A stretch of DNA of 64,000 nt, from contig CAZTJK010000001.1 in NCBI GenBank assembly GCA_964613715.1, forward strand, positions 9,990 through 73,989, read 5' to 3'. How positions within the stretch are numbered: the first letter of the stretch is position 1; each line of letters starts with the position of its first letter. The position numbers and the translations under genes were made by a program. Positions 347 to 60,730 of the stretch are shown piece by piece. The notes below the pieces were generated by a model. The model was given only the letters and a program-made list of their open reading frames with translations, had not been told where the DNA came from and did no database searches. The DNA comes from an uncultured Candidatus Saccharibacteria bacterium. GTDB taxonomy: Bacteria > Patescibacteriota > Minisyncoccia > Phycocordibacterales > GWA1-40-21.

Positions 347-354
347 GATTTGGT

Positions 355-826
355 CGGAAGTTGTTCAATACAAGTTAAGGAGAAGAACATGAGGAAAACC
401 TTCAGGACAACCCTGAAATCCCTCTCGCTCAACCTGATCGCCGACCTGGCCACCGCGCCCGCCCGTTAGGGCCACCTTTCGCGGAGGCATTCGAAGTTCT
501 TTCGCAGACCAACAGAAAAATCCCGTGTCGGGAGAAAGGATAAGAAGATCACTCGGAACCTGAATGTTTGCTTGGTAGATTACTGACCACGTATTCAGGC
601 TAGTCGAATTAGTTCGAACCGCTGGTAGCATCTCTACCGTGCGCTGTATCAAGTCTTGGAGGTAAAATCCCAACGACCCACCAGCGCACATGATTTTCTT
701 GTTCTCCGAAGCGACCGAGATAAGTTAGGTGCCAACGCACCGAGTCACTAAGTGAGGTACGTCCCTCACACGGCTCATCTCGCGTCGCATTCTGGGACGG
801 CAGTAATAACTGCCGTTTTTTTATTG
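355..826 (+). ncRNA. Candidate structured non-coding RNA or dual-function transcript of unknown family, between a strong promoter and an intrinsic terminator, immediately upstream of dnaX
   Basis: No ORF longer than 26 aa lies in the promoter-defined orientation. The ORFs on the track (365..691 and 609..830, minus strand) overlap each other and have no recognisable similarity. There are many local hairpins, for example ggtgcCAACgcacc, ggtagCATCTctacc and gtgaggTACGTCcctcac, and a long-range cctgaat...attcagg pairing. The region ends in an intrinsic terminator at 797-823, 19 nt before the dnaX start. SRP RNA lies upstream of dnaX in many bacteria, but the GGAAGGAAGCAGC helix-8 motif was not found. 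Confidence 0.35.
797..823 (+). terminator. Intrinsic terminator: acggcag-taataa-ctgccgt followed by T6
   Basis: A 7-bp GC-rich stem is followed by tttttt at 817-822. Confidence 0.7.
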
Positions 827-841
827 CCAAAAAATGCTAGA

Positions 842-42997: not shown

Positions 42998-43125
42998 GTA
43001 TTATCAAATTTTCTATCTTATGGCTCTATAGAGCCATATTATTCGTATCAGGACCTGCTAGACTATTGACATAAATAATTTACTATGCTATCATAGTATC
43101 AAATCCGTTTCGACGGGTTTTTATT

Positions 43126-43599
43126 ATGATAGAAATCATCACCACATCAATCTTCGTTTTTTCATCGATTTACAGCGCTCCGGTAACGGACGGGACTGAT
43201 ACTACGCCAATTGTGCCTCAGGTCCTTGCACCAAAGGCAGCAACGACCACTGCAGACATTCCGACAAACAAGGGAATTGAGGAGCAGGTTCGCAATTACT
43301 TCAAGGATGAACCGATCCTTGCGGACATTGCCCGCTGCGAATCAACCTTCCGTCAGTATGATGAGAATGGCAATATTCTTCGTGGCACAGTCAACAAGGG
43401 CGATATCGGCGTCATGCAGATCAACAAGTATTATCATGCCGATAAGGCGAAAAGCCTCGGCTATGACCTTGAGACGGTCGAAGGCAATATGGCCTATGCT
43501 CGATACCTCTACAACAAGGAAGGCGGCCAGCCATGGATCTCGTCATCGAAATGCTGGAGCAAGAGTACTGCTTCGTCAAATCAAGTAGCGATGAAGTAA
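43126..43599 (+). CDS. Secreted small lysozyme-like/SLT-like protein
   Basis: Signal peptide. ARCESTFRQY...GDIGVMQINKYYH matches the catalytic-Glu 'ES' and 'G-MQI' motifs of soluble lytic transglycosylases. Confidence 0.5.
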   Translation: MIEIITTSIFVFSSIYSAPVTDGTDTTPIVPQVLAPKAATTTADIPTNKGIEEQVRNYFKDEPILADIARCESTFRQYDENGNILRGTVNKGDIGVMQINKYYHADKAKSLGYDLETVEGNMAYARYLYNKEGGQPWISSSKCWSKSTASSNQVAMK

Positions 43600-43630: not shown

Positions 43631-43775
43631 TGTAAAGACATGAGGGAATAGTGGTGTTTGAAATAGTATATATGTCGCACAATATATCTTTGCGACACTA
43701 TATACTAGAGGATTCTAGCCATTCTTGAAAGACAAGACTTTCCTTGTCATGGCAAGCTTTTGGTATAATTATGCT

Positions 43776-43889
43776 ATGAAAAAGGTCAAAGTCACGCGCA
43801 GCGCAGTCAGCGGAAAATTCGTCACAAACAAATACGCGAAGCGCAAACCGAAAGTTACCGTCCGCGAGACGGTGCGCAAAAGAAAATAA
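43776..43889 (+). CDS. Small very basic protein (37 aa), leaderless
   Basis: MKKVKVTRSAVSGKFVTNKYAKRKPKVTVRETVRKRK. An extended -10 tgGTATAAT ends 7 nt before the ATG. Below the length cut-off of the ORF track. Confidence 0.35.
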   Translation: MKKVKVTRSAVSGKFVTNKYAKRKPKVTVRETVRKRK

Positions 43890-58962: not shown

Positions 58963-59271
58963 TTATGCAAATGACGGCGCGCGGGATGGTTGCGAAACAA
59001 TAAATGAGAAATCCTTCACGAGTGCGGACACATAGGAGAAGAATGGACTCGCGATCGGCGCGATATGCTCGGAGACAGAAAATACCGGCAGCGCGACAAT
59101 CGATTCTTGTGCTGGAACGCCTGATTCAATACGTTCACCATAGACCGCCTTAGCAACCATGCGGCCATTTACTTCGACAAGCTCGAATACGACAAGAGCA
59201 AGAGACCCGTCCGGCAATCGGACCGCCTTTTTGAAGAATGTATTCTGCTTTCGGAGGGTTAACATAGTCAT
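58963..59271 (-). CDS. Hypothetical protein encoded between grpE and dnaK
   Basis: 102-aa ORF lying 30 nt after the grpE stop. No recognisable similarity. Confidence 0.35.
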   Translation of the reverse strand: MTMLTLRKQNTFFKKAVRLPDGSLALVVFELVEVNGRMVAKAVYGERIESGVPAQESIVALPVFSVSEHIAPIASPFFSYVSALVKDFSFIVSQPSRAPSFA

Positions 59272-59301
59272 AATTATAATAGAAGCAAAAATGATTTCAA
59301 G

Positions 59302-59850
59302 TTATGCTTTTGTATATTCTGCCACAACAACCTTCGGCGCAACGATCACCCGGCCGGCAAGCATATATCCTTTCTTTTTCACTGCAACGATTTTTCCATC
59401 TTCGGATTCCTTGTTAGTCGCGATATGTTCATCGGCCACATGAAATTTCGGATCAAATACTTCGCCCACTGGGTTCATTTCCGCAAAGCCGTTTTCCGAA
59501 AGAATCTTCACAAGCTGCGAGTGTATATACTCGACGCCGATGCGCCAATTCTTGTCTACCTTTTCCCATGCTTCCTTGTTGGCAAATGCCATCTCAAATG
59601 AGTCGAGTACCGGCAAGAGCTCGCCAAGCAGGTTCTCATTGGCATACTTCACCACTTCGAGCTTTTCGCTTTCCATGCGCTTCTTATAGTTTGCAAAGTC
59701 AGCGCGTTCACGCTGCCAACCGGCAAGATTTTCCTGCTTTTCCTGCTCAAGGAGCTTCACTTTTTCTCGAAGCTTCTTCACCAGCTCTTCGGAATTAACA
59801 GTTTCTTCCTCTGTGACAATATCGTCTGTTGTGGTCTCTTTCGGATCCAT
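59302..59850 (-). CDS. grpE: Nucleotide exchange factor GrpE
   Basis: A coiled-coil N-terminus, then ...AEMNPVGEVFDPKFHVADEH.... An extended -10 tgTTATAAT lies upstream on the minus strand. Confidence 0.9.
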   Translation of the reverse strand: MDPKETTTDDIVTEEETVNSEELVKKLREKVKLLEQEKQENLAGWQRERADFANYKKRMESEKLEVVKYANENLLGELLPVLDSFEMAFANKEAWEKVDKNWRIGVEYIHSQLVKILSENGFAEMNPVGEVFDPKFHVADEHIATNKESEDGKIVAVKKKGYMLAGRVIVAPKVVVAEYTKA

Positions 59851-59908
59851 ATTTCAGCCTTATTTTAAGCCATTATAACAGATTTTGATAAAAAAGCAAG
59901 AAAAGTAC

Positions 59909-59937
59909 TTGACAAAAATAATATAGTATGTTAAATT
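59909..59937 (+). promoter_or_regulatory. Sigma-70-type promoter: TTGACA, 16/17-nt spacer, extended -10 TGtTAAATT
   Basis: Near-identical to the promoter at 319-346, sharing aTACTTGACA ... gTATGTTAAA. Confidence 0.6.
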
Positions 59938-59978
59938 TTAAGCAGTTCAGCGGTACTCTATCAAGAAAGGAAAAGGCA

Positions 59979-60095
59979 ATGGACGAAACGTTGACCTTAA
60001 TTGAGAAAGCTGCCCAAGGGGACGACCTCGCTCTCATTGCGCTCGGAATGGAAAAGCCGAACGTCAGTGAGTCTAAGGAAACAACCCCTGGGTGA
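59979..60095 (+). CDS. Small ORF (38 aa) with Shine-Dalgarno sequence; alternatively the coding-like part of a small RNA
   Basis: AGGAAAAGG-n5-ATG. The peptide is MDETLTLIEKAAQGDDLALIALGMEKPNVSESKETTPG. It is flanked by the strong promoter upstream and two tandem terminators downstream. Confidence 0.3.
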   Translation: MDETLTLIEKAAQGDDLALIALGMEKPNVSESKETTPG

Positions 60096-60100
60096 AAACG

Positions 60101-60172
60101 AACCGCATCCCTGCAAGGAGCGGTTTTTTGTTTGCTAAAAAATAAAAACATCCGCTTTTGGCGGGTGTTTTT
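60101..60172. terminator. Two tandem intrinsic terminators (aaccgc...gcggtt-T6, and catccgc-ttttg-gcgggtg-T5); the second is bidirectional and also serves rpsI
   Basis: Hairpins followed by U-runs. The second is flanked by A-rich sequence on the plus strand, which gives a T-run on the minus strand. Confidence 0.65.
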
Positions 60173-60240
60173 CGTATGAGCGTTTGGTCAGGATTTGAAT
60201 TCTCGCCGTCGCTCGAATTCAGCCCCGACCCTGCCTCGCA

Positions 60241-60262
60241 ATCGCATGCAGCTGCATGCGAT
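60241..60262. repeat. Perfect 22-bp palindrome atcgcatgcagctgcatgcgat in the rpsI 3' region
   Basis: Its reverse complement is identical. Imperfect symmetry extends to about 30 bp. A second perfect 8-bp-stem hairpin, cgagcaaa-gtag-tttgctcg, sits at 60291-60310. Confidence 0.8.
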
Positions 60263-60313
60263 ATTGCTGCGGCCATCGAAATGGCTCGCACGAGCAAAGT
60301 AGTTTGCTCGTAC

Positions 60314-60730
60314 TTAGCGTTTCGACCACTGCGGAGCCTTGCGGGCTTTCTTGAGGCCGAATTTGCGGCGCTCCTTGGCGCGCGGGTCGCGCTTCAGATA
60401 GCCTTCCTTCTTGAGCGTTTTGCGGAGCTCTGGATCCATCTCGATCAGGATGCGGGCGATGCCGTGGCGGAGCGCTTCTGCCTGGGAATTCACGCCACCG
60501 CCAGTAATGACTGCGGTAATGGCAAGCGGAGATGGATTTGCCTTGGCAAGGGATTCAAGCGCAGCGATCTGCTGTGCTTCCACCTTGAAATAGTCGCTGA
60601 CACTCTTCCCACCATTGATGGTGACCGACTGCTTTGCAGCTGGCGTTGCGCGCACGCGGGCAACGGAGGTCTTGCGGCGTCCGACTGCTTCGACATATCT
60701 TCCTTCTGATTTTTTCGCGGTTTTTTCCAT
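60314..60730 (-). CDS. rpsI: 30S ribosomal protein S9
   Basis: ...GGGVNSQAEALRHGIARIL...ARKAPQWSKR. Confidence 0.9.
   Translation of the reverse strand: MEKTAKKSEGRYVEAVGRRKTSVARVRATPAAKQSVTINGGKSVSDYFKVEAQQIAALESLAKANPSPLAITAVITGGGVNSQAEALRHGIARILIEMDPELRKTLKKEGYLKRDPRAKERRKFGLKKARKAPQWSKR

Follow-up and report, generated by a model that had tools for sequence, protein, structure and literature searches.

Small proteins of 50 residues or fewer that are independently transcribed have been described among the stress-induced products of E. coli and Gram-positive bacteria (PMC10730256, PMC11429745). Peptide-coding capacity is also found in the dual-function small RNAs, such as SgrS/SgrT, RNAIII/delta-haemolysin and SR1/SR1P (PMC12310071). 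The unit described here resembles both groups. It lies on the + strand between grpE and rpsI in a 64,000-nucleotide (nt) stretch of DNA from an uncultured Candidatus Saccharibacteria bacterium; the whole stretch is called the window below. Genome annotation systematically overlooks small proteins or gets them wrong, and we know of almost nothing on those of the candidate phyla radiation. With moderate confidence, we consider the unit to be a monocistronic gene whose product would be a fast-evolving orphan protein, strongly acidic and only 38 residues long.

The unit is about 190 nt long, self-contained and located on the strand opposite to that of the neighboring genes. Its elements are as follows:

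59909–59937, + strand: sigma-70-type promoter with an extended −10 box (sequence and scan)
59967–59971, + strand: Shine–Dalgarno (SD) sequence AAGGA (read from the sequence)
59979–60095, + strand: 38-codon open reading frame (ORF) with its TGA stop (ORF list, codon score and shuffles)
60099–60133, + strand: terminator 1, the unit's own intrinsic terminator (folding)
60144–60172, both strands: terminator 2, bidirectional (folding)

The initial annotation had described this arrangement between grpE and rpsI and had proposed a short, terminator-ended transcript of about 185 nt with an SD-led ORF. All of the elements are present where it had placed them, and the sequence supports such a unit, with a length of about 190 nt. 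Like the small-protein genes known from other bacteria, the unit has its own promoter, SD and intrinsic terminator, and its putative product is shorter than 50 residues, missed or mis-started in annotation, lineage-restricted and fast-evolving. Unlike many of the known small proteins, which are membrane helices, the product would be acidic and soluble; it has no homology to any small protein described so far, and its host is an uncultured Patescibacteria bacterium. A terminator-ended transcript of about 190 nt with a small SD-led ORF is also what is seen in the dual-function small RNAs, but here the ORF makes up most of the transcript, and a conserved structure, seed or target is not evident.

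The promoter has a −35 box, TTGACA, at 59909–59914, a 17-nt spacer and an extended −10 box, TGtTAAATT, at 59929–59937. It thus has the features of a sigma-70-type extended −10 promoter, with a −35 box near TTGACA, a spacer of 16–18 nt, TAnnnT and an upstream TG. Transcription is predicted to start near 59944. The AAGGA sequence lies 7 nt before the ATG; it had been called a good SD, and although an SD is present, its strength is moderate. The ORF starts with ATG at 59979, ends with TGA at 60093–60095 and takes up 114 of about 150 nt ahead of the terminator. It encodes the peptide MDETLTLIEKAAQGDDLALIALGMEKPNVSESKETTPG, including the segments TLTLIEK and AAQGDDLALIALGMEKPNVSESK, with a net charge of −5. 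For comparison, when windows of 40 residues are taken from the real proteins here, only 9.8% of them reach a net charge of −4 or lower.

Coding potential was scored with a codon model trained on the 38 long genes of the window. The ORF scored 11.8 bits, while the other two frames scored −28 and −41. True in-frame 38-codon windows had a mean score of 15.0 bits with a standard deviation of 7.6, which places the ORF at their 35th percentile, and it was outscored by 0.7% of off-frame or antisense windows and by 2.5% of stop-free non-coding windows. When the transcript body was shuffled with its dinucleotides preserved, an SD-led ORF starting with ATG and at least 38 codons long arose in 0.32% of cases (P = 0.0032). 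Three of the properties expected of a small protein-coding gene are present: an SD at 5–9 nt, an ORF longer than chance and gene-like codons in one frame only.

A contig in Logan, identical over 2219 nt, carries a gene call of 55 residues for this ORF, starting at ATG 59928. An identical contig is also present in run SRR12313477. The 55-residue call is probably too long, judging from the sequence: its start codon falls inside the promoter, after the −35 box and before the −10 box, which makes the 38-codon, SD-led version credible. A 92-codon antisense ORF at 59873–60151 on the − strand was dismissed, as it crosses both terminators and the promoter.

The equivalent position was compared in related genomes. 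The window belongs to an uncultured bacterium of the Paceibacterota (Parcubacteria) group of Patescibacteria, and the best GrpE relatives were metagenome-assembled genomes of Paceibacterota (Parcubacteria), with 71% identity in the best segment. In three relatives (L001, L084 and L090), a promoter–SD–ORF–terminator unit is found in the same place and orientation as in the window. Each has a near-identical promoter and a related leader (..CAGAAAUGCAG..), followed by a strong SD with the spacing seen in the window, an ORF and a hairpin like that of terminator 1. The four units compare as follows:

Window: SD AAGGA; 38 codons; shuffle P 0.0032; 11.8 bits; charge −5
L001: SD GGAGG; 38 codons; P 0.0112; 15.7 bits, with 0% of stop-free non-coding windows higher; charge −5
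L084: SD AGGAG; 43 codons; P 0.0036; 18.9 bits, with 5.9% higher; charge −6
L090: SD AAGGAGG; 42 codons; P 0.0052; 9.6 bits, with 23% higher (marginal); charge −4

The codon scores of the L084 and L001 ORFs are well within the coding range of their own genomes, while L090 is only marginally separated. Cys, Trp and His are absent from all four peptides. The four units can be aligned only in the promoter, leader and terminators, and these parts show better conservation than the ORF does. Between terminator 1 and terminator 2, the window and L090 share 79% identity over 70 nt (expectation value E = 1e-9), a match that points to a common origin of the unit. Evolution appears to preserve the length, the charge and the signals for expression, but not the peptide sequence.

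Several results weigh against a protein-coding role. Neither conservation of the peptide sequence nor purifying selection could be demonstrated; only length, position, SD and acidity recur. Profiles built from the four peptides in a leave-one-out scheme never recovered the omitted one among 27,855 ORF segments, and for that reason we do not claim a sequence family. The best pairwise match, between the window peptide and that of L084, has 35% identity over 26 residues and an E of about 3. The search with tblastn for the peptide in related genomes, as suggested at the outset, gave nothing in 160 related loci beyond this L084 match. A profile search of 5.8 billion proteins returned only the queries, phmmer against 1.84 billion cluster representatives returned the query itself and one artefact, and no relative of the peptide was found in Pfam, NCBIfam or the Protein Data Bank (PDB). 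Genome and metagenome scans gave no genome above about 70–78% GrpE identity, and a look-up of the exact protein for closer relatives gave only the identical contig. Moreover, L001, L084 and L090 were picked after inspection, so their joint statistics are optimistic, and the SD of the window copy is weaker than those of the relatives. Finally, in the closest GrpE relative (L063) and in others the spacer is filled with different cargo, showing that the ORF is dispensable for the lineage.

Some apparent similarities of the peptide were discarded. A match to P0004 (E = 7e-8) is to an 822-residue YDG-repeat protein, and it reaches its score only by adding up eight weak matches to the repeats. The resemblance of LIEKAAQGDDLALIALG to HU-beta is at chance level (E = 1.3). 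Likenesses to the N-terminus of extracytoplasmic function (ECF) sigma factors (GD..AF..L) and to Sel1 repeats (KAA.QG...A...LG) found no support in the profile searches. A literature search on small proteins or promoters of the candidate phyla radiation found nothing specific.

The initial annotation had described the promoter at 59909–59937 as almost a copy of one at 319–346, and took the pair as a sign of a special class of highly expressed small RNAs or small proteins. The two do share TACTTGACA and GTATGTTAAA exactly, but their spacers differ, with 16 nt at 319–346 and 17 nt here. The pattern TTGACA-N(10-16)-TATGTTAAA occurs twice in the 64 kb, against 0.00 expected. However, the promoter type is not restricted to these loci. 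A scan of the window found about nine comparable −35 plus extended −10 sites, which precede genes for a DEAD-box helicase, an inorganic pyrophosphatase, an RRM RNA-binding protein and a SWEET-like transporter, and further ones for a class I tRNA synthetase and the ORF that follows grpE. When GrpE was used to collect 144 related loci, the motif cTTGACA-N-TATGCTAnnAT was found upstream of grpE, directed away from it, in roughly 50 of them. The additional bases common to the 319 and 59909 sites (TAC before the −35 box, GTA before the TG) belong to the lineage consensus. The two promoters are therefore near-identical because both are near the housekeeping consensus of the lineage. The motif is a generic strong housekeeping promoter and not the mark of a special regulon, and the idea of a promoter-defined class was not upheld. 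The consensus, cTTGACA-N16/17-TATGnTAnnAT, may be used for annotating other small units.

The best promoter match in the window lies elsewhere, at 43066–43125 on the + strand (TTGACA-17-TGCTATCAT). It is followed at once by a hairpin and U-run, aaatccgtttcgacgggttttt, ahead of an ATG at 43126; this hairpin could be an attenuator or a leader structure. Not far from it, at 43765–43878 (+), is a further unannotated small ORF; its 37 codons specify a very basic peptide (MKKVKVTRSAVSGKFVTNKYAKRKPKVTVRETVRKRK), and a TATAAT-like box lies right before it.

The contents of the two units with the shared promoter are also unlike. Locus 1, behind the promoter at 319–346, occupies 353–832 (+), about 480 nt that end in a terminator, and lies directly upstream of dnaX, a common position for the gene for signal recognition particle (SRP) RNA. 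It folds with z = −5.8 relative to shuffles, its 27-codon ORF scores −1.8 bits, which is non-coding-like, and no Rfam or transfer-messenger RNA (tmRNA) match was found for it. Locus 1 is probably a structured non-coding RNA, whereas the unit at 59909 is mostly one coding-like ORF; the generic promoter is all that they share. Of the earlier alternatives, small RNAs or small proteins, the evidence favors a small protein for the present unit, and the grouping with locus 1 is not sustained.

The two terminators were examined by folding. Terminator 1 is formed by the hairpin AACCGC-AUCCCUGCAAGGA-GCGGUU followed by UUUUUUGUUU; the hairpin spans 60101–60125, the T-run 60124–60133, and the predicted energy is −13.6 kcal/mol. 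Terminator 2 has a 12-bp stem, with arms at 60144–60155 and 60161–60172, and has an A-run on one side and a T-run on the other. Its folding energy is −16.1 kcal/mol on the + strand, where it has the U-run UUUUU, and −11.7 kcal/mol on the − strand. Both structures are stable hairpins with a U-run directly after, as is expected of intrinsic terminators. A simple terminator scan missed both, probably because of a bulge in terminator 1 and because the stem of terminator 2 enters its own T-run. In L001 and L090, an equivalent of terminator 2 is found directly 3′ of the rpsI stop codon. From its A-run and T-run flanks and its fold on the − strand, terminator 2 would therefore also serve the rpsI transcript, in addition to backing up the + strand unit. 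The tandem terminators reported earlier do exist as two hairpins with U-runs, but only the first is the unit's own, the second being shared with the convergent rpsI.

The most serious competing explanation is that the transcript is a non-coding or dual-function small RNA, acting by base pairing or by binding a protein, with the ORF incidental or secondary. We regard this as rather unlikely. It would fit a short unit that has a strong promoter, is bounded by a terminator and shows no conservation of the peptide that could be detected, and with an ORF that is less conserved than the promoter, leader and terminators around it. The spacers of L005, L013, L014, L109 and L127 hold units that look like RNA genes and have no SD-led ORF. 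The window transcript also folds somewhat better than shuffled sequences (z = −3.15 with the terminators, −2.0 without), with a long helix in which GCCCAAGGGG pairs with CCCCUGGGU around an inner hairpin. This structure is not shared, however: the body of the L001 unit has z = +0.36, and neither structure nor seed is conserved among the orthologous loci. A covariance-model search had been proposed, but Rfam gave no family on the locus at E ≤ 10 on either strand, SRP RNA included, and ARAGORN found no tmRNA. In the whole window at gathering thresholds, Rfam gave only tRNA-Gln at 1941–2012 apart from terminator-driven noise, and such noise was all that was found for locus 1 at E ≤ 10, for 17 related loci at gathering thresholds and for the L009 spacer at E ≤ 10. 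Furthermore, the ORF fills most of the transcript before the terminator, and a pure RNA role would leave the SD in four loci, the codon usage, the ORF length and the charge unexplained; a dual role is conceivable. These same features speak against the unit being a functionless by-product, arising from a divergent promoter in the AT-rich control region of grpE or from tuning of grpE, with a transient transcript and ORF. Spacer content is extremely variable among the relatives, the −35 box of the unit is only 10 nt from that predicted for grpE, and the peptide is an orphan, all of which would be expected of a by-product. On the other hand, a terminator right after the stop codon, a well-spaced SD and coding-like codons are each unlikely in neutral sequence, and the layout recurs in three diverged genomes with similar peptide length and charge. 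We consider a by-product unlikely. The combination that was to refute the initial annotation, a generic promoter together with an unconserved ORF, applies by half: the promoter is generic and the peptide sequence is unconserved, but the ORF as a feature recurs in three relatives.

A known housekeeping RNA or the remnant of a larger gene is highly improbable. The bacterial SRP RNA (4.5S RNA; RF00169, RF01854) was considered for its GGAAGCAGCC-like stretch, and the unit does have a strong promoter and a terminator, like an SRP RNA gene. The likeness had been put forward as unconvincing, and it amounts to a loose 12-nt resemblance of AAGGAAACAACC to the SRP apical motif, just as the suggestion of a gene remnant comes down to the HU-beta resemblance mentioned above. 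The sequence fails the SRP covariance models even at E ≤ 10, has no domain IV helix capped by a GNRA loop, and the stretch in question is inside the coding-like ORF. No other Rfam family was found at this threshold on either strand, the HU match is at chance level, the 822-residue match is a repeat sum, and Pfam and NCBIfam gave no hits. Two other possibilities were rejected on the basis of the gene arrangement and the peptide. A leader peptide or attenuator would require that the terminator control a structural gene farther along the + strand, and the next genes (rpsI, rplM, rplQ and rpoA) are all convergent, on the − strand. A type I toxin is not consistent with a peptide of charge −5 that has no membrane-spanning stretch, and there is no overlapping antisense promoter and terminator pair.

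If the unit is a gene for a small acidic protein, as we favor, its expression may be pictured as follows. RNA polymerase with the housekeeping sigma factor would start at about 59944, from a promoter arranged back-to-back with that of grpE. Ribosomes would load at AAGGA and translate 59979–60092. Transcription would end at terminator 1, at about 60130, and read-through would be caught at about 60172 by terminator 2, which would also end the convergent rpsI transcript. AlphaFold, run on the single sequence, predicted a helix at residues 3–12, a turn, a second helix at 16–22 and a disordered tail, with a mean predicted local distance difference test (pLDDT) score of 77. This model is suggestive only, but would correspond to a short hairpin of helices that ends in an acidic, disordered tail. 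Such a product would probably bind a larger partner, as most characterized cytosolic small proteins do. That this acidic peptide is linked to the adjacent chaperone operon is a weak guess, made from its position.

The surroundings of the unit include the following features:

59302–59850, − strand: grpE (Pfam label)
59872–59899, − strand: predicted grpE promoter (read from the sequence; missed by the promoter scan)
60170–60290, − strand: structured RNA element downstream of rpsI (stop at 60314), ended by terminator 2 (folding and covariation)
60314–60730, − strand: rpsI (Pfam label)

All of the neighboring genes are on the − strand, in the order rpsD–rpoA–rplQ–rplM–rpsI, then the spacer, then grpE, a 102-codon ORF, dnaK and dnaJ. 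The unit is thus antisense to its neighbors, divergent from grpE and convergent on rpsI. The 102-codon ORF, at 58963–59271 between grpE and dnaK, has no Pfam match and a near-consensus promoter of its own, TTGAAA-16-TATAAT at 59300–59273. The predicted grpE promoter has a −35 box, TTGCTT, at 59899–59894, a 16-nt spacer and a −10 box, TGtTATAAT, at 59880–59872, and relatives keep an equivalent −10 box, TGaTAAAAT. It is back-to-back with the promoter of the unit, the two −35 boxes being 10 nt apart.

This arrangement is similar to the divergent promoter pairs of small regulators and their target operons, the partner in this case being the grpE–dnaK–dnaJ heat-shock cluster. In some relatives, the equivalent position in the spacer is occupied by a protein of 80 residues that resembles a DNA-binding helix-turn-helix domain, but only weakly and below the threshold. 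In the 38-residue product, by contrast, a DNA-binding signature is absent, and so is an operator of the type of CIRCE, the controlling inverted repeat of chaperone expression, even with up to 3 mismatches allowed. A regulatory link between the unit and grpE is therefore a guess.

The spacer between rpsI and grpE measures 463 nt in the window and ranges from 5 to about 3000 nt among the relatives. Many relatives have no unit in it at all, and others have different small ORF families or units that seem non-coding. It looks like a hotspot of small genes and RNAs. Among its occupants are promoter-to-terminator units that resemble conserved non-coding RNAs, seen in relatives L005/L098/L109/L127/L004, L006/L100/L128 and L111/L112. 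Examples of these units are '..aaatgtccccc..', '..ccaccgcacaatggggtg..' and 'accaggttttctttacggtatagg..'; none of them reached the Rfam gathering score.

Next to the unit, although not part of it, is the structured element at 60170–60290 on the − strand. It folds with z = −6.7, and an RNAalifold consensus of five homologues showed compensatory changes in 20 of 33 pairs, with G–U pairs setting the strand as that of rpsI. A covariance model of the element matched L086, L013, L041/L157, L114 and L056, and no Rfam match was found. It may have a regulatory role within the 3′ untranslated region, or may be a small RNA that originates from that region. We rejected the possibility that it is a copy of the 3′ end of rpsI, since the similarity was not significant (p = 0.2–0.8); such similarity was significant only for another variant, found in relatives.

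In 17 other loci, including L007 (2668–2762), L009 (1635–1728), L012, L092, L109, L111 and L135, the equivalent position holds a different hairpin, GYCCCGUAGCUAAC..GUUAUGGUACUGGGRY, with a covarying stem. On its 3′ side lies a second, degenerate copy of the end of rpsI (..KAPQWSKR stop), a similarity that reaches p ≤ 0.006 in 5 of 8 loci. The hairpin is found again a short way upstream of dnaJ, beside a second copy of the first six codons of dnaJ (MSKDYY), and it also occurs at L005 (7154–7236), L109 (5751–5842) and L021 (8393–8485). Possible explanations are a heat-shock operator and a small mobile hairpin element able to duplicate its target; the hairpin is absent from the window.

Taken as a whole, the finding is an ordinary and modest one that would not surprise a specialist. 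The unit belongs to no described protein or RNA family and is not a new class of RNA. A bolder interpretation, which we consider quite unlikely, is that the spacer between rpsI and grpE is a dedicated expression site in a Paceibacterota clade, where a near-consensus promoter, back-to-back with that of the heat-shock genes grpE–dnaK–dnaJ, drives interchangeable small cargo, and where one sub-lineage carries a family of very acidic proteins of about 40 residues that keep their charge and length, though not their sequence, and act on chaperones or at the interface between the episymbiont and its host. If that were true, it would constitute a new family of small proteins with composition-based conservation. 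If the ORF is translated, a strongly expressed orphan small protein would be added to a minimal genome, the public 55-residue gene call would be corrected, and the spacer beside the heat-shock operon would be a place for swapping small genes and RNAs.

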